Shown piece by piece: positions 3,215 through 59,481 of a stretch of 64,000 nucleotides of DNA; the first letter of the stretch is position 1, and each line of letters begins with the position of its first letter. Source of the DNA: a virus (lineage: Duplodnaviria; Heunggongvirae; Uroviricota; Caudoviricetes); IMG/VR virus record IMGVR_UViG_3300024272_000021. One strand, written 5' to 3'. The notes beneath the pieces are model-generated. The model saw nothing but the letters and a program-made list of their open reading frames with translations, did no database searches and was not told the origin of the DNA. The position numbers were made by a program, and so were the translations under genes.

Positions 3215-3233
3215 CATTAATTTTGTATTGTTA
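3215..3233 (-). promoter_or_regulatory. Conserved promoter/leader motif (plus-strand reading cattaattttgtattgtt)
   Basis: 19 nt upstream of the 2888-3196 start. Confidence 0.5.
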
Positions 3234-3428
3234 GTCGTTGATAATACGGTAGAGACCGCAATGACATTCTCCGGGCTCTCCTCTATCAATTTGTTCTCTA
3301 AACTCTTTGCAGATACACTTATTATCATCGTTAAAAGAAATTACACAGGCGCAATGGCCATTATTCTCTTTAATCTTGGCACGAATTTCTGCTACGAGTT
3401 CTTTGTCGGGGTTTGTAACTACTTTCAT
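3231..3428 (-). CDS. Small Cys-rich protein with a CHC motif resembling ferredoxin-thioredoxin reductase catalytic subunit
   Basis: GHCAC...CIC...CHCGLY pattern; sits inside the RNR/redox gene block. Confidence 0.3.
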   Translation of the reverse strand: MKVVTNPDKELVAEIRAKIKENNGHCACVISFNDDNKCICKEFREQIDRGEPGECHCGLYRIIND

Positions 3429-3916
3429 GATTCACTCACTACCTTTGCATATTGATTGTCACTGGCAAGCTTAATTCCCAAGGTCTGATCATAATGTGGT
3501 TGTTGGTTTGGGATATATCGTCCAAACTTTACTATGATTGGGCCGTAATACTTTAGCCATTCTAACTTATCTTGAATTTCTTCTTCTCTATAACCAGTGT
3601 AAATTACAACTTCGTCTGGACTCCAGTACCTGAAATTTAGCAGGAAACACTGTAGGTCATCCCAACTATCCATAGGCTCTAATCCACCACACACTACAGC
3701 TTTAGTAATTGGATTATCCATATATCTTTCAATTAGTGAATTGACATGGATGTTAATATCGGGGGCTTGTGCGAGAGCACTGTTTTGACAACAATGCTCG
3801 CCGCACTCCTTTTCGCATTTCCATGTACAAGATGGAAATCCTATCACCATAGCTGGTTTTTTATAGCTTGTAAAATCTTCGTCTCGAATTTCTTTCACAA
3901 TCATATTAATCACCAA
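3425..3916 (-). CDS. nrdG: Anaerobic ribonucleotide reductase activating protein (NrdG-like radical SAM)
   Basis: CTWKCEKEC cysteine cluster and VVCGGLEP motif; adjacent to NrdD. Confidence 0.55.
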   Translation of the reverse strand: MVINMIVKEIRDEDFTSYKKPAMVIGFPSCTWKCEKECGEHCCQNSALAQAPDINIHVNSLIERYMDNPITKAVVCGGLEPMDSWDDLQCFLLNFRYWSPDEVVIYTGYREEEIQDKLEWLKYYGPIIVKFGRYIPNQQPHYDQTLGIKLASDNQYAKVVSES

Positions 3917-4424
3917 TTATAGAAGTTTCACCATACATCTGCGCAGTATCATACCACTCTCTAGCAGAGAACTCCTTAAACCTTTCTTTACTATAAGATC
4001 TAGAAGGTGTTAAGAAACCAACAACTCTTTGATATGTATCGCAAGCGGGTTTACCACACTCAGGACAAATCTCAGCGTCTACAAATCCATGATGATTTTC
4101 ACATACATTAATTTTAGTGTTGTAGCAGAAATAGATAACGCCCTGGCTTGCAATGTAGTTGAGCATTTCCCAAGCCATATCTGCATTCGGGAAGTTATTG
4201 TCGATATTAATATGCGCTATAGCTCCACCTGAACACTTATTATCCAAGATGGCACTCGTTCTAATCTTTTCATTAATAGTACATTTTTCAGTGAGAGGGA
4301 TCCACTGATTACTGTAAATGAAATTGTCGTGTACATCGAAAAGAATATTATCTTTAGCACAAAGCTTTACTGCTGCTTGTTCTGCCAATTCTGTTACTTT
4401 TTTGACCAACTTATTTCTTACCAT
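3906..4424 (-). CDS. nrdD: Anaerobic ribonucleoside-triphosphate reductase NrdD, C-terminal piece (glycyl-radical and Zn-ribbon region)
   Basis: RVVGFLTP glycyl-radical-like motif and CPECGKPAC zinc ribbon; continues the 502-aa N-terminal piece. Confidence 0.7.
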   Translation of the reverse strand: MVRNKLVKKVTELAEQAAVKLCAKDNILFDVHDNFIYSNQWIPLTEKCTINEKIRTSAILDNKCSGGAIAHINIDNNFPNADMAWEMLNYIASQGVIYFCYNTKINVCENHHGFVDAEICPECGKPACDTYQRVVGFLTPSRSYSKERFKEFSAREWYDTAQMYGETSIIGD

Positions 4425-5350
4425 TTTGCTTTAATAGCATCTGGCCCTTTATTGAACCTGATATTAAATTGCTCAATAATATCAGGATTGTTTCGTAAAG
4501 ATGTTTTATAGTTTTCGGTTTTAAAACCAATATCTGTATCATATAAAATTTTATATTCCAAATGATGTTCTTGACAGTATTTTTTTGCTGCTATAACTTC
4601 TGCTTCGAATCTTTCTGGATTGGTATAATTTAAATGATCAGATGGTTTAATTTCAATTAAATATTTGTCGTTTACTAATGCATCTGGAGTATAATGACTG
4701 CTTTTTGATAATTTAATTTGAAAAGGTTCTACATCATAGCATTCAACTGCATCGTTTTGCTCGAATAGTATAAAATAATTTAATTCTAACAAACTTCTAA
4801 AATAAACGTCTTTTTGTCCTTTAATGGAAAACATATAACCTTGTATTCCTCTGCCCATTTTAGCGTTTTTATAACACCCTCTGGCCCATGCATCTGAAAA
4901 CTTTTTTGGATCATTCCAAATTTCTCCTGATGCATATTTTGTAATCAACGTATTTGATATTTTTTGTCTGATTTCTGGCGTTCTTTCATAGCCTACGGGC
5001 GTTATCCCTTTATGGGACGCGCTTAAGTGCTGCACTCTTTCGTCCGAAAACGTTTGTCCAAAGGATGAATTTCTGCGCCCATAACTTTTACTAGTTTGAG
5101 GATTTAAATTATTTATAATTGAATTCATTTGATGATATGAATAATCATATAACGTTGCAATTTCTCCAATGCATAATTGATATTCATCATACAATATTAA
5201 AACATATTGTAAATCTTTTTGAATTACACCATTAATAATTTGCATATCATCAATAACCAATAACGGTTTCTTGTAGTGTTGAATTATGATTTTATTTCCT
5301 GTAATTTCCACCTCTCCAAATATTTTTCCTGAAGAGTTTTTACAAAACAC
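4418..5350 (-). CDS. Homing endonuclease: NUMOD3-type DNA-binding repeats plus a C-terminal PD-(D/E)xK nuclease motif
   Basis: LSASHKGITP...TPEIRQKISNTL NUMOD-like repeats; YTPDALVNDKYLIEIKP matches PD...E-x-K; lies between the two NrdD pieces. Confidence 0.6.
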   Translation of the reverse strand: MFCKNSSGKIFGEVEITGNKIIIQHYKKPLLVIDDMQIINGVIQKDLQYVLILYDEYQLCIGEIATLYDYSYHQMNSIINNLNPQTSKSYGRRNSSFGQTFSDERVQHLSASHKGITPVGYERTPEIRQKISNTLITKYASGEIWNDPKKFSDAWARGCYKNAKMGRGIQGYMFSIKGQKDVYFRSLLELNYFILFEQNDAVECYDVEPFQIKLSKSSHYTPDALVNDKYLIEIKPSDHLNYTNPERFEAEVIAAKKYCQEHHLEYKILYDTDIGFKTENYKTSLRNNPDIIEQFNIRFNKGPDAIKAKW

Positions 5351-8944: not shown

Positions 8945-8956
8945 GAATTTCCTCCA

Positions 8957-9253
8957 TTAATTTTGTACTGTTTCCTTAGAATCTTTTTCGTCCTGCTTTA
9001 GAGCCTTGCTACAGAATTCCTCAACCTTCTTAAAGATTCTTTCATACTCACGATGGCTGCAATTAGGTTTATGCCAACCAGAAATCATCTTCATAATAGT
9101 CAGACATGCTGTGCGATAACCAAGAATCATTGCTTGGCCGCGCTCCTTGGTAAGAAAATCGCCCATAGCCTTTTTAAGTTCTTCATGACTCATTTCTGTC
9201 GTATCAACTTCGGCAACGGCTTCATCGATTTCTACATTCTTGTTTTCTTCCAT
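8957..9253 (-). CDS. Hypothetical protein
   Basis: ORF. Confidence 0.4.
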   Translation of the reverse strand: MEENKNVEIDEAVAEVDTTEMSHEELKKAMGDFLTKERGQAMILGYRTACLTIMKMISGWHKPNCSHREYERIFKKVEEFCSKALKQDEKDSKETVQN

Positions 9254-9316
9254 GTTGTCATCTCCTTTCTTATATCGGTATTAATATTATACCACATTAA
9301 TTTTGTATTGTCAAGA

Positions 9317-9796: not shown

Positions 9797-9970
9797 CCTT
9801 TTGTTCCTTTCAATTATTCACCATTTGCAATTATCCATGTCATCAACAAAAAACCAGATAATATGCCAATGGATAGTCCATTTAATAGATTATCCATATG
9901 TATCACCTCCACAAACATTAATTTTGTATTGTTATTATAACACATTTTAACATTTTGTCAAGTATAAAAG

Positions 9971-10255: not shown

Positions 10256-10522
10256 TTACTCTGAAATCAATACACAGTCATCGCTATGCACAAGATAAGT
10301 TGTTCCGTCTATTTTAATCTGTATCTGATCGCCGTCTTCATAGTCTCTCCAGCTCTGAACTTTGCCTTCGACAATAGTTCCATTGGGTAGACTTATAATT
10401 GCGCGATCAAAAGTGTATGTAGTATCAAACACGGTACGGTTGCCACAGCCAACAAGCATCAGAGTTACCAGAATGAGCACAACAACAAGTGCAAAAATCT
10501 TCTTCATATTTATATCCTCCAT
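10256..10522 (-). CDS. Putative lipoprotein
   Basis: signal peptide plus LVGCGN lipobox; start codon sits inside the promoter motif. Confidence 0.45.
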   Translation of the reverse strand: MEDINMKKIFALVVVLILVTLMLVGCGNRTVFDTTYTFDRAIISLPNGTIVEGKVQSWRDYEDGDQIQIKIDGTTYLVHSDDCVLISE

Positions 10523-10538
10523 TAATTTTGTATTGTTA
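10520..10538 (-). promoter_or_regulatory. Conserved promoter/leader motif that includes the ATG
   Basis: ccattaattttgtattgtt; start codon of 10256-10522 lies in the motif. Confidence 0.5.
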
Positions 10539-15613: not shown

Positions 15614-16158
15614 CTCAAATATTCTATTTTCCTATTTCTGTAAGTCTGGCTCGGTTTATACTTAAATATCACTTCGCTAATATCAAACTCAAAATTATAC
15701 ATGTCTGAGTTATAATATACAATATCAGTTGGAATAGCACATCTTGGTGTACAAGTAAAAGATCTAATTGTTGCTTCAGCGGCAATCATATCTCGTTTCA
15801 TTCCATAACGTTTTAGCCATTTCTTATTTATACGATGCTTCTTATGCCAACGCGCCTGAATCAGAATTGGTACATCCCAATATATTCTACGAGGTGTTTC
15901 TAGCGTTTCGAACATTGAATTAAATAGCGGCATGTTGATCTGTGTATTTTCACAAGCAAATTCTGCATTACCAATTGAATTAAGATTGATTGCAACATCC
16001 GACTCTGCTTTATCGGATAGCGGTGTGATAAATTCTTCAATTGTGCAACCTTCCGAGAACACAACTTGATTATCTGCAAGGTCAGATATCCACACTTTGC
16101 CAGGACTAAATGTTGCTATATTGCCGTTCATTGTTTGTACCTCAATTTCCAATTTCAA
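15610..16158 (-). CDS. Hypothetical protein
   Basis: ORF. Confidence 0.4.
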   Translation of the reverse strand: MKLEIEVQTMNGNIATFSPGKVWISDLADNQVVFSEGCTIEEFITPLSDKAESDVAINLNSIGNAEFACENTQINMPLFNSMFETLETPRRIYWDVPILIQARWHKKHRINKKWLKRYGMKRDMIAAEATIRSFTCTPRCAIPTDIVYYNSDMYNFEFDISEVIFKYKPSQTYRNRKIEYLR

Positions 16159-17389
16159 TCAGATACTTAATAGTCATCTGCTCTTCTTTGTAAACAACAA
16201 TCTCATCATTCCTCAGCATTCCTCTATCAGCATGAGCATGGAGGCAATTTGCACCAGGCTGAAACTGCTGAAGTTTATTGTAGTCAAGATTATAATATTT
16301 GCTATCAAAATTGTATACATCATAAGGTGTGCCGTATGCTACATCAAACAATGCCATATAAGCTGTATTATTACCGCCATGTGCCCAATAAGAACCCGAC
16401 AGAGAAGTGTATCCAATAGACTTCTGGCACTTAGGGGCATAGTAGCAACCGTAACCAAACATCTTGCCCGTAATAACTGCATTAGTAGGTCTTAGCACCA
16501 GGCCAGTCTTAATGATGCTCCAGAAATTTTCACTTCTACTTCCGTGGAACAACAATCTTGTATCCTTAATACCATTCTCTGCAACAAACTTATCAAAACG
16601 CTCCTGAGTTTTAAGATTCTTAACTCGCCAAGCCTTCCTAAATTTGCCTGCAGATTCGTTCATCAGAGTCTTAATAAGTGCTACGTCATCTGCCGTAGTT
16701 TCCTCCATCTCAAGACCAAGCTCTTCCAGAATAGTCTGCTGTTTCTTTTCAACTGTCTCAACAGGTTCATTATCAGGTTTCACATAAATCTGGCCGCGCA
16801 TAACGTCAAGAAGATCCTGCTCCTTGGAGATAATCTGTGCAAAATCTTCAACCTTATTAGCAAGATAATCTCTAACATTGCCCATCTTTCTCGGAATAAC
16901 AGTAAATAGCTTAAGCAGATTATCGTTAAACTCTTCAACTGCAGAACAAGAATTTGCAAGTGTATCAATAATCTTCTGTGCTGCGTCAACCATATCCTGA
17001 GTAACGGCGGATGCCTTGACGGTATAGTTCTTCTGAATAGTTTCACGAGCTAGACTCTGGAGTTTTTCTACGATAGCTCTTATAGCAGCATTCTCAATTT
17101 CTTTATAGGGACTTTCAGGATTGGTAGAGGAAATTTCCTCCACCAAATCCTTCTTTAGGTCTGTTATGTCCTGATAGCCCTTCTTAAGCTTGCTGCTAAT
17201 TTGCGAATCCCACTTGGACATAGGATAATATCTTGTAGTCTTAGTGGCATCAACTCTGCCATATTCAACTCTAAACTGTCCATCCTCAGGGAAAAGATTA
17301 TAATACTTATTATTGTTTGCAGTTGTTACCATAATCAAATAAGTAGGTCTAATCTCTGCCATAACAAAGCCTCCTCTTACAGTTCGCAA
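16142..17389 (-). CDS. PARP-like ADP-ribosyltransferase with an N-terminal WGR domain and intact H-Y-E catalytic triad
   Basis: FRVEYGRVDA (WGR); LLFHGSRSENFWSIIKTGL, TGKMFGYGCYYA and RNDEIVVYK match the PARP1 catalytic motifs. Confidence 0.75.
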   Translation of the reverse strand: MRTVRGGFVMAEIRPTYLIMVTTANNNKYYNLFPEDGQFRVEYGRVDATKTTRYYPMSKWDSQISSKLKKGYQDITDLKKDLVEEISSTNPESPYKEIENAAIRAIVEKLQSLARETIQKNYTVKASAVTQDMVDAAQKIIDTLANSCSAVEEFNDNLLKLFTVIPRKMGNVRDYLANKVEDFAQIISKEQDLLDVMRGQIYVKPDNEPVETVEKKQQTILEELGLEMEETTADDVALIKTLMNESAGKFRKAWRVKNLKTQERFDKFVAENGIKDTRLLFHGSRSENFWSIIKTGLVLRPTNAVITGKMFGYGCYYAPKCQKSIGYTSLSGSYWAHGGNNTAYMALFDVAYGTPYDVYNFDSKYYNLDYNKLQQFQPGANCLHAHADRGMLRNDEIVVYKEEQMTIKYLIEIGN

Positions 17390-17802: not shown

Positions 17803-17823
17803 AGTTTCATTTCTCCTTTATAA

Positions 17824-18633
17824 TTAATTTTGTATTGTTATAAATTCATCTTCAATTACCAGTACGTTTACTTTTCCAGAATGAGCAACACAAGAGTCAA
17901 TTCCGATATAACCATCGCCATAAAACGGATCAAACTTTGCATCTTCTCCAAACACATCACGATCTTCTACAATTGCCCATGCTTCTGAGGTGTGCCAATG
18001 TCCGAACACCAATGTCTTATCAGGGAGTAGACCTTGTTCTGCAAGTTCAAATGGGTTTCCCCATCTTGCCTCTTCCCACTGTCTTTTATTAGCTTCGCGC
18101 CAATTTTCCATCTTAGAAAGCTTCCTATTGCGAATATACTGCTTTGGCAAACCATCGTCGTTATTCAGCGGAACAAATGCATGTACAAAAATATGATTCT
18201 GCGTTTCGAAATAATCTACCATACTGTCAAGAAATACATGTGTTCGTGCCAAAGCCCTGTCGCAACATTCAGCAAAGGTATAACCTTCACCGGCATTTCC
18301 AAGTTCATTTATTGTTTGAACCGTACCATTAGAATAATCGTAACTCCATGCTTCTCCACGCTCACAACATTCTTCAAAGAGATCTTCGTGATTTCCACGT
18401 ATCAAAATTTTACGTGGAAGAGTTCTTAAATATTTCATTACTTCAAGCGGATTTGGACCTCTGTCCCAATTATCACCGCATGAGATAAGCCAATGGTTTT
18501 CGTTATTCGGATCGAAACCTGCCTCATCAAGTGCTTCTCGCATTTCTTTATAGAATCCATGTATATCCGAAACTACAAAGAATGTATTCATTTTCCCACC
18601 TCTTCTATCTTTTATATAGCTATTATACACCAT
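17824..18633 (-). CDS. Calcineurin-like metallophosphoesterase (PPP family, lambda-phosphatase-like)
   Basis: VVSDIHG, CGDNWDRGP and RGNHE motifs. Confidence 0.75.
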   Translation of the reverse strand: MVYNSYIKDRRGGKMNTFFVVSDIHGFYKEMREALDEAGFDPNNENHWLISCGDNWDRGPNPLEVMKYLRTLPRKILIRGNHEDLFEECCERGEAWSYDYSNGTVQTINELGNAGEGYTFAECCDRALARTHVFLDSMVDYFETQNHIFVHAFVPLNNDDGLPKQYIRNRKLSKMENWREANKRQWEEARWGNPFELAEQGLLPDKTLVFGHWHTSEAWAIVEDRDVFGEDAKFDPFYGDGYIGIDSCVAHSGKVNVLVIEDEFITIQN

Positions 18634-18649
18634 TAATTTTGTATTGTCA
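18631..18649 (-). promoter_or_regulatory. Conserved promoter/leader motif that includes the ATG
   Basis: cattaattttgtattgtcaag; start of 17824-18633. Confidence 0.5.
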
Positions 18650-21552: not shown

Positions 21553-21655
21553 AATTATTGTCTCCCTTTTGTCATTAATTTTGTATTGTTACCCGATGCC
21601 ATTATTATACTTTATTATGCTATAATTGTCAATGGGTTGATCAGTTAAGTGTTTG

Positions 21656-23927: not shown

Positions 23928-23940
23928 TTAATCACCTTCA

Positions 23941-25374
23941 TTAATCTTGTATTGTTTCTTCTTCCTGTGCTTCTTCCATATCGGGTTCAACAGCTTCCTC
24001 CTTGATAATGCCTTCTAAAACTTTAAAATTAAAATTCTTATGCTTATATACTGCAATATTAGGACGATTTACAATACGAGCAACTACACCTTCGCGTACG
24101 TGAGTCTTACCAACGGGGTCAGGACCATCAAAGTACTGCTCTACCTTGCGCAGAACATACTCTCCAGGGTCAACTGCATATGCCTTATCATCGACATAAT
24201 AACCAGCTTCATCCTCTGCGACTTCGCACTTGAACTCAGGAATCATGAAAGTCTCAAATACAGGCACATACTTTACGCCCATCTGATCGCAACGCTGACG
24301 CATCTGCTCAGGAGACATTTCAACGACATCGCCATCTTCATTTACCTGAGTCATACGATAGACATAAACTTCACACTTAGGAGGAATTACAGTATCAAAT
24401 TCTAGCACATCCGGTGCAGAAGAAGTGTAAACAGTATTCCAACTACCCGCAGGGTCGCAACCATAGGAGAACACGGTCTCCTCACCGTACTGCTTAGTGA
24501 AAGCCTTGTCAGAAATCTTAGAGTTCTTAACAGAAGCCATAATAGGAGTCTGCGCATTTACGAAACCAACGATTTCGTAATATACAACCTCACCCTTGCG
24601 CAGCTTGCCGAAGAACTTCTTCGCCATTGCATGACGGAACTCGTTATCAGAGTAGAAACCACCATCATGAGTTTCGTCCAGTACGACACGACGGGTACCA
24701 GTTACATAGTCATACTCGTAATAGATATCACCGGGCTTACGAGTCAACTTCTGCCACAGAGTGCGCTTCTTCTGCTTACGCAGAGGCAGATAGCCAGTAC
24801 GACCAGAAGTTCCATGCATCTTAAGAGTTAGTTCTACAATATCACCGGTCTTAAATTCGCCAAGATTATATGCAAGCTGCGCAGTATCAATATGCTCATA
24901 AAAAGTTGGTGCAAAATTAGCCTTTGCTCTCTTACCACCACCATGATAAGTAGAAGATGCATGATTACGCTTTGGGATATACTTCTTACAAATTTCCTTA
25001 CCGTTCAGAACAGAAATAGTATCTCCTTCTCTAAGGTCGGATATCTTACAGAAATCAGCAAGACAAGTTAGAGGTAGAAATAGTCCATCAGACTTCTCAC
25101 CACGAAGCTTTAGTGCTTTAATGTTGCGCTTTTCAGGATCTAGATAACCACCACAGGTGTTACCATTTTCATCCTTGCGACGAACTAGGTCATTCACTCT
25201 ACAAAATTCTTCGGAGAGCTGTCCATCTACAGGGAAATATACACCAAGCTGTCCTTCAGTGTAGTCCATGGAAACGATTACGGAGTTGCCAAAACATTCA
25301 CCAATCTGTAGTCGGTCTGCGTTAGAATGCTTATGTACATTCTTTAGAGTAGTAATAAAACCAGTGTAAGCCAT
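23941..25374 (-). CDS. ATP-dependent RNA ligase (Rnl2/Rnl5-like) with an N-terminal OB-like domain
   Basis: motif I LTLKMHGTSG (K-x-H-G-x), ~180-aa N-terminal domain; adjacent to kinase-HD and NTase. Confidence 0.6.
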   Translation of the reverse strand: MAYTGFITTLKNVHKHSNADRLQIGECFGNSVIVSMDYTEGQLGVYFPVDGQLSEEFCRVNDLVRRKDENGNTCGGYLDPEKRNIKALKLRGEKSDGLFLPLTCLADFCKISDLREGDTISVLNGKEICKKYIPKRNHASSTYHGGGKRAKANFAPTFYEHIDTAQLAYNLGEFKTGDIVELTLKMHGTSGRTGYLPLRKQKKRTLWQKLTRKPGDIYYEYDYVTGTRRVVLDETHDGGFYSDNEFRHAMAKKFFGKLRKGEVVYYEIVGFVNAQTPIMASVKNSKISDKAFTKQYGEETVFSYGCDPAGSWNTVYTSSAPDVLEFDTVIPPKCEVYVYRMTQVNEDGDVVEMSPEQMRQRCDQMGVKYVPVFETFMIPEFKCEVAEDEAGYYVDDKAYAVDPGEYVLRKVEQYFDGPDPVGKTHVREGVVARIVNRPNIAVYKHKNFNFKVLEGIIKEEAVEPDMEEAQEEETIQD

Positions 25375-26284: not shown

Positions 26285-26354
26285 TAGTTGTTCCTCTCAA
26301 TTCGCATTAATTTTGTACTGTTATATTACCATATTTTCCCATAAAAGTCAATAG

Positions 26355-29713: not shown

Positions 29714-29759
29714 CATTAATTTCGTATTGTTATTATACTACATTAATTTTGTATTGTCA
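29714..29759 (-). promoter_or_regulatory. Two tandem copies of the conserved motif
   Basis: cattaatttcgtattgtt at 29714 and cattaattttgtattgtcaag at 29741. Confidence 0.5.
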
Positions 29760-31438: not shown

Positions 31439-31516
31439 GGATGATTATTCCTTTCTACATTAATTTTGTATTGTTATTATATCATATATTTTTATTTTGT
31501 CAAGACATAAAAAATA

Positions 31517-35998: not shown

Positions 35999-36017
35999 TC
36001 ATTAATTTTGTACTGTC
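35999..36017 (-). promoter_or_regulatory. Conserved promoter-like motif copy placed to drive leftward transcription of tRNA array 2
   Basis: cattaattttgtactgtcg; only a 10-codon mini-ORF follows. Confidence 0.5.
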
Positions 36018-36341: not shown

Positions 36342-36347
36342 ATAGAG

Positions 36348-36885: not shown

Positions 36886-36932
36886 ATATCTTATGGAAGC
36901 TTCGTCTCAAACTGGTTTACCAACCATTAACT

Positions 36933-37451
36933 TTATGTTGTTATATTATATTTTTTACGACCTTTTCGTCCATTGCCTATGTTCCCTGCTTTATATGTTT
37001 CAGTTAAAGAATGACAATTAGGACAAAGAAGCTCTAAATTATCTTCTAAATTATTAGTATAATCTCCATCTTTATGATGAACCTCAAGCGGAATCTTTCC
37101 GGTAAATAAATTCATTTCATTCCAACCACATTTACAGCATTTGTTATCATATTTTTCAATCAAATATCTCTTTATATAGCTTGAAATTGCATAAGGTTTT
37201 ACAATTCCGTCCTCTTGTCCATTCTTCCATCTTTCTATATAATTTACATATTCAAAATCACGTTGACACTTCGGAGAGCAATATTTTTGATTTTCTAGAG
37301 GCATTTCCCTTCCACAGTTTATACAATATTTATGTTTCTTTTCTTTTCGAATATTATTATAAGACGCCGCACAACTATTATTACAAAACTGTTTTATTTT
37401 GTATTCACTAGGGCTCATTTCTTTAATAGGTATATCTTGATTGCAATACAA
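36933..37451 (-). CDS. HNH endonuclease embedded in the tRNA region; the reading frame stays open upstream to about 37690 without an ATG, so the true start is uncertain
   Basis: EVHHKDGDYTNNLEDNLELLCPNCH HNH motif plus several CxxC pairs; track start is a TTG codon. Confidence 0.6.
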   Translation of the reverse strand: MYCNQDIPIKEMSPSEYKIKQFCNNSCAASYNNIRKEKKHKYCINCGREMPLENQKYCSPKCQRDFEYVNYIERWKNGQEDGIVKPYAISSYIKRYLIEKYDNKCCKCGWNEMNLFTGKIPLEVHHKDGDYTNNLEDNLELLCPNCHSLTETYKAGNIGNGRKGRKKYNITT

Positions 37452-37992: not shown

Positions 37993-37999
37993 ATGTTAG

Positions 38000-38512: not shown

Positions 38513-38612
38513 ATAAGATGCGCCGTTTTGCCCCGACGCTAGGCCAAACTAGATGGGCGGATTTTCCTCCGCATTGATAATCATAAAAGCATTCCTCATA
38601 CGAATCATCCCC

Positions 38613-38631
38613 CATTAATTTTGTATCGTTA
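38613..38631 (-). promoter_or_regulatory. Conserved promoter-like motif copy placed to drive leftward transcription of tRNA array 3
   Basis: cattaattttgtatcgtt with no ORF downstream, only tRNAs. Confidence 0.5.
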
Positions 38632-39695: not shown

Positions 39696-39811
39696 TTTCT
39701 TGTCCTCCTAATTAACTTTGATCTTTCATTCATTTTGTGTTGTGTTGTTTCCTTTGAACTGGATTTATTATATCACACTTTCCAGAATTTGTCAACACCT
39801 TTATTTGTTAA

Positions 39812-40189
39812 TTAATTGTTATCGTAAAAATGTCGTTCGTTCAGATACTTCTCAATGTTATCCGCAATCTTACGGAAGTCATCTACATACTTGGCAAGTC
39901 TCTTATTCATGCTATTGTGATATGTCTCGGTGAGTCTATCACAGGCAATCGCCTTACCGCGCTGCTCATTCCATTCATCTTCGGGATGAAGCTTTGCTAC
40001 GGCCTTATACTTACGGTTCATGTCAAACTTAGAATGATTATAAGTGTTACTTATCTGCATTCCAGATGTTACACACGGGATAAACTTATTGTTTATCATA
40101 TTCTCCGCGTCAAAATAACATCCATCAATTTCAGCTACTACAACACCATTGTCCTTGTCAGTAATGTAATTAACTCGCTTGTTATCCAT
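39812..40189 (-). CDS. Hypothetical protein
   Basis: ORF; promoter motif at 40202. Confidence 0.4.
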   Translation of the reverse strand: MDNKRVNYITDKDNGVVVAEIDGCYFDAENMINNKFIPCVTSGMQISNTYNHSKFDMNRKYKAVAKLHPEDEWNEQRGKAIACDRLTETYHNSMNKRLAKYVDDFRKIADNIEKYLNERHFYDNN

Positions 40190-40257
40190 TGTCTTGCTCC
40201 TTCATTAATTTTGTTTTGTTGACCGTGTATATATATTACCATATATTCCCAAATTTG

Positions 40258-41345: not shown

Positions 41346-41413
41346 ATGATTGTATCTCCTTTTGTCAATTTATGGAAGAATTATACCACATTAATTTTGT
41401 GCTGTCAAGAGGG

Positions 41414-44498: not shown

Positions 44499-44517
44499 CA
44501 TTAATTTTGTATTGTTA
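44499..44517 (-). promoter_or_regulatory. Conserved promoter/leader motif upstream of the polymerase gene
   Basis: cattaattttgtattgtt 17 nt upstream of the 44482 start. Confidence 0.5.
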
Positions 44518-46017: not shown

Positions 46018-46244
46018 AGCTGCCGCACTTGTATAGCCGTCAGGGATCGCAGTCTACTAAAACTGCGATATCATCACCCCTTTCGAAATGCTTATCAAAG
46101 CACTTGACTGCATCTTCAATATTGTTTAGATTTTCATATTCGTTACAACATGAAGAATTAAGATTTAAATATCCTTCTGGATCTTCAATTCCACGATTCA
46201 AAAGCACAGTTTCTATTACCTGCGTCGTGTCATTTAGCGAATTT

Positions 46245-47303
46245 TCATATAATCTGTACTTCATTTGTATCCTCCAATTCATTTTGTATTGTTAATTGCA
46301 ATTTATCCCAATCTTCCTTAAACATCCATCTATAGCCGCCTGCAAATTCTTTTCTTTTATGACAACAGGCACTAATATTTTTACGGTTTATCTTTGTTTT
46401 CTTTTCAGCTTCTTGTAAGCTATTATAAGTATTCACTAGTTCATTATTTGTCGCAATTTGAAAAACCACTTTTTTATTATTGCCAGTATACTTATTATAA
46501 TAATTTTTTATTACTCCTTGCTCGTAATCTTTTTTATATTCCCAAACAAATCCTCCAGCAGACGCATTATTGTCATAATTATCACAACACCTATAAATAC
46601 TTCCATAATTTATTCCTGTTATAAGATAAGCATCATATGCAGACTTATATTCAGCAATATATTCTCCGTCTAATGTTAATTGAATTACTTCATCACCATT
46701 ACCATAATTAGGGTTTTTATCTCCAGAAAAATCTTTATGATTATCTCTCATTTTTTGTAAAATTTCGTCGCTTAAATTTTCCTTTTTATGAGCTTCTCGA
46801 TTTTTAGCCTTTGACTCATCAGTATGTTTGCGACCATACATTGGGGTATTCTTAGGGTCAGACATTCGATCTTTAGCTATTACCCTTGCTTTTTCTCTCC
46901 TAGTTTCATCTTTCCACACTTCTTTTAATATTGTTCTAATTTTATTTTTTGTTTCTTCGGATACTGCTCTACCTAAGGTCCCTTCTCCTCCATCCGTTTC
47001 GTTATATCCAAAAGATGGATTATTATATTTACGACAATTAGACTTATAAATGCTTATTAGTTCGATTTCTTTATTCTTTGCTTCATTTTCCGTAAGTTCA
47101 CCGGAGATAATAATATGTTCAAAATTATCCCATCCATACTTATTAATCGCTCTATAAAATACAATTTGATTCCTATAATTATAACCATTAATTCCCCATC
47201 GCTCTTCTGGTCTTTTGCTTGTAATCCCAATATACACTTTATTATTAATTTTGTTTTTATGCATATAAACGCACCAAATTCTATTATTTAATTCTTCAGT
47301 CAT
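46245..47303 (-). CDS. GIY-YIG homing endonuclease with NUMOD3-like repeats (freestanding)
   Basis: CVYMHKNKINNKVYIGIT GIY-YIG motif followed by repeated S/T-x-E-T/S-K-x-K-I/N helices. Confidence 0.7.
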   Translation of the reverse strand: MTEELNNRIWCVYMHKNKINNKVYIGITSKRPEERWGINGYNYRNQIVFYRAINKYGWDNFEHIIISGELTENEAKNKEIELISIYKSNCRKYNNPSFGYNETDGGEGTLGRAVSEETKNKIRTILKEVWKDETRREKARVIAKDRMSDPKNTPMYGRKHTDESKAKNREAHKKENLSDEILQKMRDNHKDFSGDKNPNYGNGDEVIQLTLDGEYIAEYKSAYDAYLITGINYGSIYRCCDNYDNNASAGGFVWEYKKDYEQGVIKNYYNKYTGNNKKVVFQIATNNELVNTYNSLQEAEKKTKINRKNISACCHKRKEFAGGYRWMFKEDWDKLQLTIQNELEDTNEVQII

Positions 47304-48346
47304 AGTTCATTGTCTTCCAATTTATCTATATTTTCAATTTCGTTTTTTAATATATATTCAAATTCTTTTTTTAACCCATCGCAAGGAGCGGCCTTATCAT
47401 TGAGATCTAAGTTGTATTCCCATTGCCAAAACTTAATCTCCAGTGTCCTCATTTTACAAAATTCACGCAACACATCAATATTTCTCTTGGTATTTTCTAA
47501 CGGAAGATCCTTATCGAGCATGAATGTCACGGACTTAGGATTAAGCGACATTAAAAGTCTCGCCTGCACAGTACTCAAAGAATTACTGCCAAGTGCAACC
47601 GCATTATTATAACCCCACGAATCCAATTTAAGTACACTTTTTTCACTTTCAAACACCAAAATATCTCCTTCATATAATGTGTCATAATTTTCACTAAAAC
47701 CAAAAAGAGTCTGTGCCATCGGGCCTTGTACTAAAAACAAATATTTTGCTTCATATTCAGACAATTCAAAATTAGCCCTGCCCTTTACCGCCATAATTTC
47801 TCCAGTGGCAGTTCTAATTGGTAGGGTTATTCTTTGACTTTCCGTATCATAACCAATATTCCATTTCCGTTGTGTTAAAAGATCAATTCCATCTTTCAAC
47901 CATGCCAAATTTGGTACATCTTCATACTGTTTTAGAACTTCTTCTGGATACGTCTTAATATCTACACCATCTTTTCGTCTTTGAATATTATTATAGATAT
48001 CTCCGAACAATCCCACTCTTTTTTTATAATTATATAGAGATTCAATGCCAGTTTCTTGTTTAATAACATTAAGAACATCCTTAAACTTAATTCCCTTTTC
48101 TTTTACAATATATGTTATTAAATCATAACTAACATTTCGCTCATAATCCTTTACAAATAAATTTTCATTATTTTGCAAACGAATTACAACAGCAGTAGGG
48201 TTCATACCATATTCAAAAGCACATCTGATTTCCTTATTTCGGATTCGCACCTTATCAAATCCGAAGGTTTCAAGAATGTGCTGGATTAATTCTGGATTAT
48301 CTATTAGTTTGCTCTTTACTTCTTCCAGCACATCCTTCACCTCCAT
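47300..48346 (-). CDS. DnaG-like DNA primase (TOPRIM domain)
   Basis: GDILVFESEKSV TOPRIM glutamate and FMLDKDLP DxD motif. Confidence 0.65.
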   Translation of the reverse strand: MEVKDVLEEVKSKLIDNPELIQHILETFGFDKVRIRNKEIRCAFEYGMNPTAVVIRLQNNENLFVKDYERNVSYDLITYIVKEKGIKFKDVLNVIKQETGIESLYNYKKRVGLFGDIYNNIQRRKDGVDIKTYPEEVLKQYEDVPNLAWLKDGIDLLTQRKWNIGYDTESQRITLPIRTATGEIMAVKGRANFELSEYEAKYLFLVQGPMAQTLFGFSENYDTLYEGDILVFESEKSVLKLDSWGYNNAVALGSNSLSTVQARLLMSLNPKSVTFMLDKDLPLENTKRNIDVLREFCKMRTLEIKFWQWEYNLDLNDKAAPCDGLKKEFEYILKNEIENIDKLEDNEL

Positions 48347-48362
48347 TAATTTTGTGCTGTTA
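48344..48362 (-). promoter_or_regulatory. Conserved promoter/leader motif that includes the primase ATG
   Basis: ccattaattttgtgctgtt. Confidence 0.5.
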
Positions 48363-52922: not shown

Positions 52923-53273
52923 TTAATTCAATTCTTTGCAATGGTCGCAATCTCCGTTGCACTCTTCTTCAATTAGAATGTCAGAGAAACCATCTTCAAA
53001 TATCTCACTTAGAGTCTCAAGCAGTTCTTCCATAGTATCAGATTCGAAAACATTTTCCATGATATTATACTTAACTCTTTCATAATCCGAACTATTCCTC
53101 ATTGAAAAAGCATGAAACCAATTTTCGTCGCAGCAACAAGTTACATAAAACACCGGAACGTCTGCCGCTTTAGTGAGTTCGATGAAATGAGTTTCGTTAA
53201 GATCATTTACCAGAATACTTTCGCTAACCATAGTTCCCTGATATACCATATTCAAATCTCCTTTGACATTCAT
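52923..53273 (-). CDS. Hypothetical acidic protein
   Basis: ORF; start codon inside promoter motif variant. Confidence 0.4.
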   Translation of the reverse strand: MNVKGDLNMVYQGTMVSESILVNDLNETHFIELTKAADVPVFYVTCCCDENWFHAFSMRNSSDYERVKYNIMENVFESDTMEELLETLSEIFEDGFSDILIEEECNGDCDHCKELN

Positions 53274-53282
53274 TTTGTACTG

Positions 53283-53492
53283 TTAGTAATATCTGTTATC
53301 CATATTAACATCATAAAAATAATAGATGTCTTCCTTTTGTTCGCCTAAATTCAAAGCTTTAGTAATCCCGCATGTCGGGCAGTTGGTCATAATGTATAAC
53401 TTTTCAATAGAAACTTCTTGGGGTATTTGATAGATTCTCCCACAACCCGTACATTGTAACCACGTTTTTGTTTTCTTTCCATCTATATTCAC
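53283..53492 (-). CDS. Hypothetical zinc-ribbon protein
   Basis: CTGCG...CPTCG; promoter motif at 53527. Confidence 0.4.
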   Translation of the reverse strand: MNIDGKKTKTWLQCTGCGRIYQIPQEVSIEKLYIMTNCPTCGITKALNLGEQKEDIYYFYDVNMDNRYY

Positions 53493-53919
53493 TCATATTT
53501 TGCCTCCCTCCTTATCGTCTCAAAGCCATTCATTTTGTACTGTAGACCTTATTTATAAATGCATTATACCATACTTCGTCCGACTTGTCAAGTGTTCCCT
53601 CCCCAGCCGCCATATTACCTATAATACAATATATAATTCCATTACATCACTTTTAATATAACATTTTTCACTATCGATATAGACCTCCGTAAGTTCGTCC
53701 ATATTTATGTATCGCTTTTCATCCTCAATTATGAGGCCGATGCGCTCTCCGTCCATAAAGGGACAGAGAACACATCCATTCATTCTTTGGTTCCCATACA
53801 ACAGGTGCTTAATTTGTACGTTTGCCTTTCTGTTGTTTAAAACATTAAACTTCTCTATAAAATCTCTTACAATAAAACTTGATAACATTTGCCTATACCC
53901 CCTAGAAGCTGTCAATAAT

Positions 53920-54894
53920 TTATATGAAATCTTTAAAGCGGTGTGTCAAATTATCTACATAACTATCTGAATGAAAACCATATTTACCAGCTAAATCATA
54001 ACCATCTTCGGATTTTAAGAAACTTTTTAATTCAAGTCCTGTTTCTTGCATCCCTTGATTTAGGTAATGATACATGCCACTGATGTGTATATTCTTCATC
54101 GTTAGCCCGGGGATACCAACGTGTTCTCTAAAATTTTGTACTTTTCTATATACCCATCGAAAATTTCTGTCATCTGAATCGGCTGCATGTGTGTTATCTC
54201 TTTCTTTATACAAATTCCCAATCCCAATTAATTTTTTAACTCTCAATGATTCTCCGTAACACATATATTCAGTTTCGTCGAATGCTTTAATTAAAAAATT
54301 ATACAGCCTATCAGTTAACTTTATCCTCCTTCCGTCTGGAAAGTATAGCATCCTTTCCCTTGAATCGACCATGGACTTATTTATCTTAACCAGGTCGCTC
54401 ATACTTGGTCCAGAAATGCCCTCCCATAAGCACTCTAATATAGCCTTATCAGTCCAGTTATATAACCGATCCTCAATTTCCGTTATCTCTTCTCTGCTTA
54501 AGAACTTCATACTATCTGGCGGAATGCATGGTTTTAATAATTCTATAGTAATATTGTCATATGATTCCGTTGTTTGTTCCTTATGATAATAACGTCGCCA
54601 TGCACAATATGCCTTTAAAATTGTATTGTAATTCAAAAGCACATAAACTGATTTAGCTTTAAACTCCTTATACATCCCTAAAATTTCTTCTTCGTTAAAT
54701 TGGTTACAGTCCTTATGATTCTTTTCTTCAAATGGTTCCGTTTTTCTAAAAAGACTATACAATGATGTTCGAGCTATAACTCTAGACCTCATATAGTCTT
54801 TTATAAAACCTTCTTTCATTTCAGATTGATACATGATATTGCCACCCCTTTGTGGATTATTATATACAACGAACACCTGTTTGTCAATTAACAA
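53920..54894 (-). CDS. Hypothetical protein, possibly a degenerate tyrosine-recombinase-like protein
   Basis: 324 aa directly upstream of the integrase; weak HxxxxY-like C-terminal pattern only. Confidence 0.35.
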   Translation of the reverse strand: MLIDKQVFVVYNNPQRGGNIMYQSEMKEGFIKDYMRSRVIARTSLYSLFRKTEPFEEKNHKDCNQFNEEEILGMYKEFKAKSVYVLLNYNTILKAYCAWRRYYHKEQTTESYDNITIELLKPCIPPDSMKFLSREEITEIEDRLYNWTDKAILECLWEGISGPSMSDLVKINKSMVDSRERMLYFPDGRRIKLTDRLYNFLIKAFDETEYMCYGESLRVKKLIGIGNLYKERDNTHAADSDDRNFRWVYRKVQNFREHVGIPGLTMKNIHISGMYHYLNQGMQETGLELKSFLKSEDGYDLAGKYGFHSDSYVDNLTHRFKDFI

Positions 54895-54907: not shown

Positions 54908-55882
54908 TTAAATCATATCGTCCAAAATATTCGCAGCCTGCTTCTGTCTTTCCTTAGACAATTCTGCGTATCTTTGTGTAGTTGAAACGTTCTTATGATT
55001 CAACTGTTTTGCGCACAAATAAATGTCACCAGTTGCTTCATACAGATTTGTAGCACAAGAATGACGCATAACATGAGGAGTAACATGTTTATCCGTTACT
55101 CCTTTTGAATACTTTTTAAGCAATTCTGCGACCATGTCATCACTTAGGCGTTGATCACGCTGTGAAATAAACAATGCCTGAGAAGTATAATCAGAAAAAT
55201 ATCTCTTTCTGTCTTCAAGCCATGATATGATTTGTGCTTTCAGATTATCCCCAAACATTATATAATTATCATAATCTCCCTTTTCAGTAATTCTAATTTG
55301 ATTATGCTTGAAATCAATATCTTCTATATCAATCTGTATAATTGCTGATACACGAAGTCCAGTACTAAAACCCAACTTCAAAAGACAAAGATCTCTATTT
55401 TTAAACTTATCTTGTGCATTCATTTCAATGTTATGTATTATTTTTGTAATTTCTTCAGGTGTCAAATATGTTACCTTAGGATTATCCTTCATTTTAGGTC
55501 TTTGTGTATTTGCTACCGGATTCATGTTAATATAATCAGGGACTAAAAACTGAAAAAACGAATTAAGTGCAGACCATTGCACACTCCTTATACTATCCGA
55601 TGTTCTTTCCATTTTTCCATTTACCTCTTTAGTTCTCAAAGAAGCAATATATTTATTAATATGAAGGGGTTTTATCTTCAAATAAAACTGTTCATCATTT
55701 TTCCCCTTAAACGTAAAATTCAAAAACGAAATTACGCAATTGATATATCTATATGCAGTATCATAAGATTTACCAGAACCTACAAGACTATAATAATATT
55801 CACTAATAATATGAGGAACATCATTAAGTCTATTCAAAATCTTTCTTTCCAATTTCTGTTCTTTTTCCAACCTACCACTCAA
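54908..55882 (-). CDS. Tyrosine recombinase/integrase (XerC/XerD-like)
   Basis: GLRVSAIIQ (catalytic Arg), HVMRHSCATNLYEATGD...LNHKNVSTTQRYAELS (H-x-x-R-H, nucleophilic Tyr). Confidence 0.85.
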   Translation of the reverse strand: MSGRLEKEQKLERKILNRLNDVPHIISEYYYSLVGSGKSYDTAYRYINCVISFLNFTFKGKNDEQFYLKIKPLHINKYIASLRTKEVNGKMERTSDSIRSVQWSALNSFFQFLVPDYINMNPVANTQRPKMKDNPKVTYLTPEEITKIIHNIEMNAQDKFKNRDLCLLKLGFSTGLRVSAIIQIDIEDIDFKHNQIRITEKGDYDNYIMFGDNLKAQIISWLEDRKRYFSDYTSQALFISQRDQRLSDDMVAELLKKYSKGVTDKHVTPHVMRHSCATNLYEATGDIYLCAKQLNHKNVSTTQRYAELSKERQKQAANILDDMI

Positions 55883-56745: not shown

Positions 56746-56822
56746 AATATACCACCCTTTCCCTTATTTTAAATCATTAATTTTGAATTGTCAAGATTAT
56801 CAATTTAGAATATTGTGAATAT

Positions 56823-57350: not shown

Positions 57351-57767
57351 TTATTTCAGTTGCAGAGTTTCAAGCGGCGGCAACTTCCCACCACGTCTTA
57401 CACCACGATCATATTCCATATCAATATAATCCTGATAGTCTTTTATTATCTTTTCAGGAACTTTAATTCCATATTCCTTGCATTTCTCTAGCGCCCATAC
57501 GGTTGCATAATATTCTTCTTCACATCTTCTCATGCCTGTTGTAGTAGTTTCAAGATGCCCAATTTCATGCAACAACGTAAATGTACTCTGCACACTATTT
57601 GCAGCTTTCCATTTACACACCCTTCTTTTCTTTACATGTGCATGTGTTCTCCGCCAGTCATTACTACATTTAGATCCATCGCATAAATCCACTCGATATT
57701 TCTTAACTATATCTGCCTGAATTTCAGCATATTTCATACTCCGACATCCTTTCTTTATATTCTTCAT
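57351..57767 (-). CDS. HExxH zinc-metallopeptidase-like protein (ImmA/IrrE- or SprT-like)
   Basis: TLLHEIGHLE motif with a downstream EEYYAT. Confidence 0.4.
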   Translation of the reverse strand: MKNIKKGCRSMKYAEIQADIVKKYRVDLCDGSKCSNDWRRTHAHVKKRRVCKWKAANSVQSTFTLLHEIGHLETTTTGMRRCEEEYYATVWALEKCKEYGIKVPEKIIKDYQDYIDMEYDRGVRRGGKLPPLETLQLK

Positions 57768-58524
57768 AGCCTTCTTCAGTCAAAAATCTCTTAGCTTCCT
57801 TAAGACTAGCTACCGTAATTTCATGTGTATCAAGATTAGTTTTAGCAATAATAGGAATGTATTCGTTATTGCCAATCCATTTTCTGCCTTCAGAGAACAT
57901 CACTCTTCCGCGCTTCCACTTCTTACCGCCACTTCCGTTAGAATACTGATAACCTCTAACTTCCTTCTTAGTTTTCATTACTCAAACCTCCATTCATCGG
58001 GAAACATTCTCCAACCTGCATTTATCATGTCTTCAAACTGAATGCAATAGCACTGATTCTGTTCGTAAGAATCTATATTGCACCATAAATTTCCAGTAAG
58101 CCTCTCATATCTTTCTTCTGCCTTTTCCCATATCATTTCAACAAAATCAAGATGTTCCATATTTTCACCAGTTTTGACGTTTATAAATTTTAACATTATT
58201 TATTCCTCCTTTTGATTACCAAAGATTTTCGCCAAGTACTTGCAAATTGCAGCCCTTACTGTTTCCAGTAATAGGAATCCAACGCTCACCATAACCGTCA
58301 ACACAAAGGACCATATATGCCTCGTCGCTCGTCCATCTATTCTTCATGACCTTATACTGAACACCATCCCAACCACACTTTGCCTTAGCGACTACTTCGG
58401 ACAGTAGACTAATATACTCTCGCATGTCTTTTTGTGCGTCGGTATATTCTGACTCTGAAATCTCTACATAACCCTTATCTCTGAGACACCAACCATAAGT
58501 ATAATTTTTCATATTCATTCCTCC

Positions 58525-58794
58525 TTACACATTCAATGTCTGAGTTTCAGTCATAATAACGAAGCTGCAGTTATATTCAAAATCATAACTATAACCAGTT
58601 GCTCCAGGCGCAACTTCATATCCAGAAGTGTCAAATACACCAAAGTATTCACACTTTTCCATATGATTCATATCACTAAACTCCCAGAATTCATCTTCGT
58701 TTTCAAACTGAAATACAGAGATTTTATCTGCGGATTCACCACGGAATACCCAATCGGATTCAAATATCTTTTTCATAAAATCATCACCATTCAT
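58525..58794 (-). CDS. Hypothetical protein
   Basis: ORF; start codon inside promoter motif variant. Confidence 0.4.
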   Translation of the reverse strand: MNGDDFMKKIFESDWVFRGESADKISVFQFENEDEFWEFSDMNHMEKCEYFGVFDTSGYEVAPGATGYSYDFEYNCSFVIMTETQTLNV

Positions 58795-58803
58795 TTTGTA
58801 TTG

Positions 58804-59481
58804 TTAATGCTGATGGAATACAACTGCCTTAAGTTTCTTAGACCAACATGCGCCGCAAGCAGAACAAGTAGATTCCCTTCCAGGACACATAAAAGCGTTC
58901 TTAGGAATTTCAGGATTCAACCTCTTATCATCAAAATCTACATATGCTACACCAAGTCCATGAGGATTCGGAACGTCCCACAACTTATCCCATGCAGAGA
59001 ACATGATATTAAGATTATCGGGCAGTTTTCCGTTCTTGTCAATGTAATCGTTTACCATTTCGTACTGCTTAGTAAAGGCCATGTACTTTGTGTTAGGAGT
59101 CTTATTACACACATCCACAAGTCTTACAAGGAAGGCCATATCAGGAAAATCACCGCTATCAAAAATTCTTACCTTGGGAAGTCCAGAAAACTTTACCTTG
59201 TAGTAAACCTGCTCGAAGAAATTATCGGGATCGTCATAATACAGTCTCAGGTTTCTGTAATATGCCGCCTGCACAGTTGTCATCACCTGAAATCCCTTAT
59301 TCGCATAACATGTTGCTCTACAAGGTGCGTCACTACGACATACACAAGTAGGAAATGCAAGATTCAAACAAGCCTTACCAGTTTTGCTATTGTTATTATT
59401 CATATTAATTTCATTGCTCTTATTGGCAAGAAGGTCAATATACTCCTGACGGCTCATCGTGAAATCCTTTTTCTGTTTCAT
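58804..59481 (-). CDS. Hypothetical protein with N- and C-terminal cysteine clusters
   Basis: CVCRSDAPCRATC and CPGRESTCSACGAC. Confidence 0.4.
   Translation of the reverse strand: MKQKKDFTMSRQEYIDLLANKSNEINMNNNNSKTGKACLNLAFPTCVCRSDAPCRATCYANKGFQVMTTVQAAYYRNLRLYYDDPDNFFEQVYYKVKFSGLPKVRIFDSGDFPDMAFLVRLVDVCNKTPNTKYMAFTKQYEMVNDYIDKNGKLPDNLNIMFSAWDKLWDVPNPHGLGVAYVDFDDKRLNPEIPKNAFMCPGRESTCSACGACWSKKLKAVVFHQH

Follow-up and report, generated by a model that had tools for sequence, protein, structure and literature searches.

The master repressor of SPbeta, MrpR, is a monomeric protein with a recombinase fold and without recombinase activity (Kohm et al., NAR 2023, PMC10516654). It binds a repeated sequence, the SPbeta repeated element (SPBRE; Lazarevic 1999 as cited in Kohm et al.), at 10 SPbeta promoters, as found by chromatin affinity precipitation sequencing (ChAP-seq) and electrophoretic mobility shift assays, and represses lacZ fusions 5-fold (PMC10516654). 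The repressor of phi3T, SroF, has been crystallized on a 26-bp asymmetric box, where one monomer clamps the DNA and reads 24 of the 26 bp through an interface of ~1,700 square angstroms; SroF sites are spread over the genome and the antirepressor Sar is under LexA control (Chmielowska et al., bioRxiv 10.1101/2025.11.27.690993). Here, a repeated motif of ~18 nt in IMG/VR virus record IMGVR_UViG_3300024272_000021 (Caudoviricetes) is compared with these boxes. The whole stretch analysed (64,000 nucleotides, hereafter the window) is part of an SPbeta-like phage of Firmicutes of ~165 kb. Sequence similarity and analogy with SPbeta and phi3T make it likely that the motif is the operator, equivalent to SPBRE and the SroF box, of a predicted master repressor of the MrpR/YopR/SroF type encoded at 53920-54834.

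Motif copies and host-type promoters

On the minus (coding) strand the motif reads T(A/G)ACA(A/G)TACAAAAT(T/G)AATG, and information content drops sharply to background on both sides of it. The repeat reported in a preliminary description of the window proved real, with its first copy at 3215-3231 and its last at 58788-58804 (Table 1). Allowing two mismatches, the 15-mer AACAATACAAAATTA was found 24 times in the window, 22 times on the minus strand, whereas dinucleotide-preserving shuffles averaged 0.93 matches and never exceeded 3. When as many as three mismatches were allowed, the 17-mer ACAATACAAAATTAATG had 27 minus-strand matches and a single plus-strand match. Between 25 and 27 copies on the minus strand are credible, against ~1 on the plus strand and ~1 expected by chance; the matches at 36925-36941 and 54613-54629, each with three mismatches and the latter inside the repressor open reading frame (ORF), are doubtful. 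All genes of the window and all 10 to 13 tRNA genes are on the minus strand. The copies of this asymmetric box, numerous and dispersed as operators of this class are, all share the orientation of the genes.

Relatives were found by means of the motif and of the repressor protein. The exact 17-mer was present in more than 112 IMG/VR stretches, many of them from contigs of 150 to 170 kb, and a repressor homologue with 55 to 84% identity was encoded on the same contigs as the motif. In metagenomes, 717 homologues of the repressor were found (E ≤ 1e-5), the 120 matches listed being 78 to 96% identical and lying on contigs of up to 176 kb. Relatives carrying the repressor gene (L116-L132) had more than 100 motif copies in sense and none in antisense orientation, at 5 to 11 copies per 20 kb. 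The motif stays exact in these relatives while its flanks are 64 to 86% identical or cannot be aligned. For example, the copy at 58788-58804 is kept at the same gene end in L116, L122, L128, L130 and L132.

Every position was scored with a simple -35/-10 weight matrix, a score > 11 denoting a strong promoter (95th percentile of the background, 9.9). A strong sigma-A promoter was in fixed register with 17 of the 27 motif copies, in three registers. In type I (seven copies) the -10 hexamer ends one base before the ACA of the motif and the predicted start falls inside it. Type II copies (five) span -35 to -12, the motif forming the 3' half of the -35 box and the 17-nt spacer (cTTGACAATACAAAATTAATGTGGTATAAT), and in type III (five copies) the -10 box is 13 to 23 nt upstream of the motif. 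The -10 box is often TGnTATAAT, 17 nt past the -35 hexamer. Among the 22 strongest minus-strand promoters of the window, 16 carry the motif, and a second promoter scan recovered the same promoters (12 of 12 and 11 of 12). The preliminary description had taken the motif for a phage-specific promoter class; most copies are instead locked, in these registers, onto consensus host sigma-A promoters. The second element that had been seen upstream, CTTGACAAA, is indeed TTGACA-like and is the -35 hexamer of TTGACA-N17-TATAAT, the -10 box of which had been overlooked.

Each of the strong terminators at 18696, 9987, 31539 and ~26370 is followed by a motif-carrying promoter. In terminator and promoter scans of the window, wherever a motif came after a terminator a sigma-A promoter was there too; hence the motif is not the sole promoter of any transcription unit. 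Genes start 10 to 43 nt 3' of the motif, after GGAGG-type ribosome-binding sites; the mRNAs are therefore not leaderless, as had been proposed from the ATG in the motif, which is rarely a start codon. ORFs from this ATG have ≤ 10 codons in 20 of 26 copies and are inconsistent in length and frame.

The motif is a DNA-level transcription-control element. Its full length is kept both upstream of the predicted start (type II) and where the start falls inside it, and it precedes tRNA genes. To that extent the earlier view of a promoter rather than a purely translational signal was sound: it was right about control of transcription at the level of DNA and wrong about a promoter class. The copies placed earlier at 35999 and 38613 had been said to precede only tRNA genes. 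The copy at 38613 does stand ahead of a tRNA array (tRNA-Lys, 38437-38512). Between the copy at 36000 and the second array, however, there are small ORFs, a long tRNA-like gene (35539-35652) and a DUF2828 gene.

Two strong promoters at 2063-2092 and 30408-30436 lack the motif. The former follows a terminator and is 5' of a large serine recombinase gene (86-2023). The latter lies inside an aminotransferase gene, 5' of a 3D-domain gene at whose end are the tandem predicted operators (29757 and 29730). The genes behind these two promoters may be expressed in lysogeny.

Table 1. Predicted repressor locus and motif copies in the window, in order of descending position
Feature	Coordinates	Strand	Context
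Motif copy without sigma-A promoter	58788..58804	-	Stop codon of upstream gene (58804-59481) is the TAA of 'TAACA'
Motif copy, type II	56775..56791	-	-35 box and spacer of promoter TTGACA-17-TAAAAT (56794-56766)
Tyrosine integrase gene, YopP homologue	54908..55882	-	Pfam; tblastn match to yopP; directly 5' of repressor gene
Consensus promoter of repressor gene, TTGACA-17-TATAAT, without motif	54859..54887	-	Promoter scan
MrpR/YopR/SroF-like integrase-fold protein (predicted), 304 aa; candidate motif binder	53920..54834	-	Pfam and PDB matches
Motif copy, type III	53527..53543	-	19 nt 3' of -10 box of promoter 53591-53563 (TTGACA-17-TATAAT)
Motif copy without promoter	53267..53283	-	Gene junction; second copy 3' of repressor gene
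Motif copy, type I	48344..48360	-	-10 box of promoter 48390-48362 directly adjoins motif
Motif copy without promoter	46276..46292	-	5' of N-terminal RecJ-like fragment
Motif copy, type I	44499..44515	-	Promoter 44545-44517; 5' of DNA polymerase III alpha-like gene
Motif copy, type II	41389..41405	-	Promoter 41408-41380, TTGACA-17-TATAAT
Motif copy, type III	40203..40219	-	Promoter 40261-40233
Motif copy, type III, two mismatches	39727..39743	-	Promoter 39795-39767
Motif copy without promoter	38613..38629	-	100 nt 5' of tRNA-Lys and first tRNA array
Degenerate, doubtful copy (three mismatches)	36925..36941	-	TATAAT 3 nt upstream
Motif copy, type III	36000..36016	-	Promoter 36061-36033, TTGACA-17-TATACT
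Motif copy, type I	31458..31474	-	Promoter 31503-31476; terminator 31539-31516 before
Motif copy, type II	29741..29757	-	Promoter 29760-29732; stop codon of upstream gene inside motif
Motif copy, type I	29714..29730	-	Same promoter (29760-29732), giving two predicted operators in tandem
Motif copy, type I	26305..26321	-	Promoter 26351-26323; terminator hairpin 26357-26381 before
Motif copy without promoter	23939..23955	-	Stop codon of RNA-ligase-like gene is the TAA of 'TTAATG'
Motif copy, type III	21573..21589	-	Promoter 21632-21604
Motif copy, type II	18631..18647	-	Promoter 18650-18622; directly after strong terminator 18696-18666
Motif copy without promoter	17822..17838	-	Stop codon of upstream gene inside motif
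Motif copy, type I	10520..10536	-	Promoter 10566-10538
Motif copy, type I	9916..9932	-	Promoter 9961-9934; after terminator 9987-9971
Motif copy, type II	9295..9311	-	Promoter 9314-9286
Motif copy without promoter	8955..8971	-	Stop codon of upstream gene is the TAA of 'TTAATG'
Motif copy without promoter	3215..3231	-	Stop codon of upstream gene is the TAA of 'TAACA'

The predicted repressor and its counterparts in SPbeta and phi3T

The protein encoded at 53920-54834 matched Pfam MrpR_N_CB (2e-12, 48 bits against a cut-off of 27) and, partially and below the cut-off of 27, MrpR_C_cat (8.5e-5, 22.8 bits). When compared with the PDB by phmmer, its residues 1-266 matched the YopR/MrpR chains 8bj6, 8bjv and 8a0a as well as 9rd5, which is deposited only as 'Core-binding (CB) domain-containing protein' (E = 1.5e-12 to 2e-11). 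The catalytic residues of recombinases appear to be lost: Arg-I is replaced (I140/S141 align with V137/S138 of MrpR), there is no HxxR (the protein reads K247-N-I-H250) and no tyrosine aligns with the nucleophile (L296 aligns with Y304). As a check, the SPBc2 record was seen to have E136, the published c2 mutation. In both sequence and loss of catalytic residues, the protein is a predicted member of the MrpR/YopR/SroF family. Recombination of the motif catalysed by it was considered and is unlikely because the catalytic residues are missing. Equivalents of the DNA-reading residues of SroF are invariant at 5 of 10 aligned positions, compared with 28% of all columns, numbering and alignment being uncertain; this conservation is only weakly suggestive.

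The genomic context is that of the SPbeta repressor gene. The integrase gene is followed by the repressor gene and by a replication module with YorJ-, YorK- and YorL-like genes (tblastn), an order that matches SPbeta, and a repressor-like gene followed by a replication module is also found in phi3T, Geobacillus virus E3, Thrax5 and FADO. The operon of small genes, integrase and MrpR-like gene is headed by the motif-bearing promoter at 56794, as SPBRE is present at the SPbeta yopM promoter, and parallels yopM-yopR (sroA-F). A YopP-like integrase gene and a motif-bearing operon promoter are upstream and a replication module is downstream. Neither the window nor any of the 17 relatives examined has the motif in the promoter directly 5' of the repressor gene. 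Two motif copies are ~380 and ~640 nt 3' of the repressor gene, after which no terminator was predicted.

The 17-nt spacer of the repressor promoter contains a palindrome resembling a LexA/Cheo box, CGAAC-ACCT-GTTTG, at 54870-54883 (CGAACACCTGTTTG). The pattern GAACN4GTT[TC] is matched only three times in the window. Among L116-L121, the nearest relatives, both half-sites are preserved and the central 4 nt differ (ACAT, AAGT, ACGT, AGGT); in the clade of L122-L127 and L130 the spacer contains another palindrome, ATGAATATTCAT, which is perfect.

The SPBRE consensus derived from the SPbeta genome is ACAAATACAAA(T/A)AATATGTAT; there are 11 copies, each in the orientation of the gene that follows it. 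In the majority the sequence is TAGACAAATACAAATAATATGTATATAAT, with -35 and -10 boxes separated by a 17-nt spacer, in the same register (+26) as type II in the window; at yopV and yonX the element is just after the -10 box, as in type I. Both SPBRE and the window motif are dispersed, asymmetric, A/T-rich boxes, co-oriented with genes and found beside the gene for an integrase-fold repressor, and their 5' halves (GACA(A)ATAC) are similar. Like SPBRE, 17 of the 27 window copies are associated in fixed register with sigma-A promoters. However, the consensus is ACAAATACAAATAATATGTAT in SPbeta and ACAATACAAAATTAATG in the window, and the two repressors are only ~23 to 25% identical. Copies are also sparser in SPbeta (~11 in 134 kb, compared with ~26 in 64 kb), its host is Bacillus whereas that of the window phage is probably a clostridial member of the Lachnospiraceae, and many copies in the window have no promoter.

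The published phi3T box is antisense to the genes; in sense it reads TTAAGAATA-AAAAT-AAAATTACTA. The commonest form of the window motif is TTAACAATA-C-AAAATTAATG, the outer blocks of which match the phi3T box at 16 of 19 positions. Random AT-rich 20-mers reached 16 matches in 7 of 200,000 trials (~3.5e-5), a figure that is indicative only since the alignment was chosen post hoc. The phi3T boxes resemble the window motif in density (20 copies in 40 kb), in being all sense-oriented and in that many lack a consensus promoter. The linker is 5 nt in phi3T compared with 1 nt in the window, making the window site ~4 bp shorter, and the SOS-like box is at the repressor promoter in the window rather than at the antirepressor gene. 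Unlike in phi3T, arbitrium genes were not recognised in the window.

The box is specific to the repressor clade. That of the window was not found in SPbeta, phi3T, E3 or FADO and matched once in Thrax5. The window family in turn has no SPBRE and at most one match per locus to the phi3T box, which is strongly enriched only in phi3T. Conserved promoter spacers, at ~15 to 20 copies per 40 kb, were also seen in the phages FADO (L135), Thrax5 (L134) and E3 (L133), which encode MrpR homologues. They read TTGACAaaTGATAcAAATAATGATATAAT or TTGACAaaTGATAcAAATAAT(G/C)ATATAAT in FADO and TTGACA-N5-AAAAATAATGATATAAT in Thrax5; these spacers are candidate lineage-specific operators. The arrangement has a parallel outside this family: C1 of coliphage P1 is one monomeric repressor with many asymmetric operators of ~17 bp, scattered over a large genome and overlapping promoters. 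P1 C1 differs in being an unrelated protein with another fold, from a phage of a Gram-negative host, and its operators have no sequence relationship to the window motif.

If the predicted repressor acts as its homologues do, a protein with a tyrosine-recombinase fold and lost catalysis would wrap as a monomer around a long asymmetric site, as in the phi3T structure; this would explain why the motif is ~18 bp long, non-palindromic and in a single orientation. Bound repressor would cover the -35 box and spacer, or about -1 to +30, and, most copies of the motif being built into strong host promoters, would block binding or escape of RNA polymerase. This would keep almost all early transcription units of the prophage silent (those for replication, nucleotide metabolism and tRNAs), and they would be released together on inactivation of the repressor. 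The weakest step is the assumption that promoterless copies at gene junctions within operons would be additional binding sites.

Alternative explanations and copies without a promoter

It is improbable that the motif is a promoter of phage-specific machinery (a phage RNA polymerase, sigma factor or appropriator factor) with transcription starting just downstream. Being ~18 nt long, contiguous, strictly oriented and 10 to 43 nt before gene starts, it does resemble promoters of single-subunit polymerases; those of the T7-like enzymes are also contiguous, conserved and oriented, ~18 to 23 bp long and near gene starts. Promoterless copies exist, one of them ahead of a tRNA array, and SPbeta-like phages encode the polymerase YonO (PMC5467207). 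However, YonO uses a single start site in SPbeta, upstream of yonK in one late operon (PMC5467207), and for this reason a YonO-type promoter was rejected. The preliminary description had called for a search for a phage-encoded sigma factor or RNA polymerase; Pfam detected none among the ~40 largest proteins of the window, which covers 64 kb of a ~165-kb genome. Fixed overlap with host promoter hexamers is a trait of an operator and not of an independent promoter, terminators are followed by the motif only together with a sigma-A promoter, and the homologous boxes of SPbeta and phi3T are known experimentally as repressor sites. An action of the motif in mRNA, 5' of the ribosome-binding site, as a translation enhancer, standby site, mini-ORF or processing target, is very improbable. 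It would account for the constant sense orientation directly before the Shine-Dalgarno sequence (often ATGGAGG), for the ATG and two TAA codons in the motif, for the transcription of promoterless copies within operons and for an unusually unstructured region (minimum free energy -5.2 compared with -9.6 kcal/mol in controls). Yet type II copies are not transcribed from their own promoter, 18631-18647 directly following a strong terminator, and the 5' half of type I copies, untranscribed by prediction, is equally conserved. Furthermore, one copy precedes tRNA genes, which need no translation, and the ORFs from the motif ATG lack a consistent length or frame. A conserved RNA hairpin at the motif was sought and dismissed, since controls are more structured than the region and all Rfam matches are to tRNAs.

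The motif might also be no more than a core common to strong promoter cassettes of host type, in which the spacer, the -16 region and the initially transcribed sequence are conserved; the cassettes would have spread by duplication and recombination, and the motif would have no dedicated binding protein. FADO and Thrax5 also have conserved promoter spacers, the ATG of type II copies overlaps a TRTG -16 element, and gene modules are reshuffled among relatives, all of which would fit. We nevertheless judge this, too, to be improbable, as the motif is exact in 170 promoterless contexts and occurs in three registers to the hexamers, unlike a passive remnant, and homologous boxes are proven protein-binding sites. 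Homology breakpoints were no more frequent at the motif (11 of 25) than at motif-free gene starts (27 of 75). The motif had seemed to be a hotspot of module exchange (14% compared with 3.3% at random), an idea abandoned with that control, since breakpoints near the motif are explained by breakpoints falling at gene junctions. In L116, modules of the window region 35999-40688 are reordered, segments 40688-40202, 38637-38452, 36162-35999 and 39795-38956 being consecutive there, and several block ends are at motif or promoter sites.

Several observations weigh against the motif being the operator of an MrpR-like repressor. The link to the repressor is drawn from homology at ~25% identity and from analogy. 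The motif is unchanged across repressors of 55 to 96% identity, with no intermediate clade found. The switch may also follow another logic in the window phage, since a LexA-like box stands at the promoter of the repressor gene, whereas in phi3T and SPbeta it is the antirepressor gene that has the SOS box. No Sar-like antirepressor was recognised in the window, the ORF at 53619-53888, 3' of the repressor gene, having no similarity to phi3T Sar. A sigma-A promoter is lacking at 8 real copies of ~26 in the window. The same is true of 170 among 292 distinct contexts from relatives (58%), for which promoter scores have a median of 5.08, compared with 4.99 in the background. Such copies cannot be accounted for by repression of a local promoter, and their position directly 5' of ribosome-binding sites would also fit a promoter or leader element.

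Promoterless copies are placed precisely where two genes of an operon meet. In 42 cases the TAA of 'TAACA' serves as stop codon of the preceding gene and in 33 cases the TAA of 'TTAATG' does so, with the ribosome-binding site 0 to 10 nt after. Promoterless boxes at junctions are not peculiar to the window family, as they are seen in phi3T too. There, 20 of 20 copies in 40 kb are below the promoter threshold used here; many are found 14 to 55 nt 5' of a start codon, and one overlaps with the 3' end of the preceding gene. Tentatively, promoterless copies may be putative conditional roadblocks that depend on the repressor, forming a distributed lock against read-through over the ~60-kb one-directional array in lysogeny, which would be gone on inactivation of the repressor; we hold this to be possible, if doubtful. 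Among the explanations for these copies we prefer it because a clamp-like monomer with an interface of ~1,700 square angstroms would be a good obstacle and all genes run in one direction. Alternatively, they may be weak promoters for which a -10-like element suffices (CAAAAT for the window motif and TAAAAT for the phi3T box), or they may function in mRNA leaders.

Host, other genes and wider significance

The only match among 185,579 species genomes was a 162.5-kb contig of a metagenome-assembled genome (MAG) of Faecalimonas sp. (Lachnospiraceae). A nucleotide search with 10 kb of the window gave no match among 50,697 phage records. The host is possibly a member of the Lachnospiraceae, an assignment that is tentative and rests on metagenomic binning. 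A Bacteroidetes or crAss-like reading, including the likeness of the motif to the Bacteroidetes -7 box mentioned in the preliminary description, was rejected on account of the GGAGG ribosome-binding sites, the TTGACA/TATAAT promoters and the Lachnospiraceae MAG as sole bacterial-genome match.

Besides the large serine recombinase, the tyrosine integrase and the MrpR-like protein, Pfam identified in the window a DNA polymerase III alpha-like protein, an NAD-dependent ligase, NrdD and RecJ-like, AAA_24/Sak4-like and DnaB-like helicase proteins. The RecJ-like gene appears split. One part, a 74-amino-acid ORF (46040-46264), is similar to the N-terminus of YorK, and the remainder forms ORF 44542-46017; a GIY-YIG/NUMOD homing endonuclease gene (46245-47303) is directly upstream of these fragments (region 44542-47303). 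The split could be due to an intron, a disruption associated with the endonuclease or a frameshift.

The gene at 19009-20097 encodes a 362-amino-acid adenylosuccinate synthetase homologue, PurA- or PurZ-like (Pfam Adenylsucc_synt, 4e-24). PurZ is a marker of phages in which 2-aminoadenine takes the place of adenine.

In the tRNA region (32500-38650) ARAGORN found 10 tRNAs and Rfam 12 tRNA matches, three of them at loci missed by ARAGORN. Two Rfam matches, at 38000-38142 and 35539-35652, are unusually long and may contain introns. A gene for a DUF2828/DUF7788 protein (33531-35093) is inside this region. Elsewhere, a protein with a PARP-like catalytic domain (16142-17362), an RNA ligase-like protein (PHA02142 OB fold and RNA_ligase; 23941-25374) and an AAA_33 kinase-like protein (22033-23010) are encoded, which together with the tRNA genes look like a toolkit for RNA repair or ADP-ribosylation.

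Recognisable promoters are missing at many boxes of both the window and phi3T, a feature that is unexplained in published accounts. If they are indeed roadblocks, integrase-fold repressors would have a second mode of action, a block of elongation, and the same would hold for phi3T. An integrase-fold master repressor with dispersed operators has previously been described only in SPbeta-like phages of Bacillus. Most likely, the switch known from SPbeta and phi3T is now found in an uncultured gut phage family, which would extend the system to abundant phages of ~150 to 176 kb. The operator consensus and the map of promoters and operators of the early region should aid prediction of transcription units and of the control of lysogeny in these phages.

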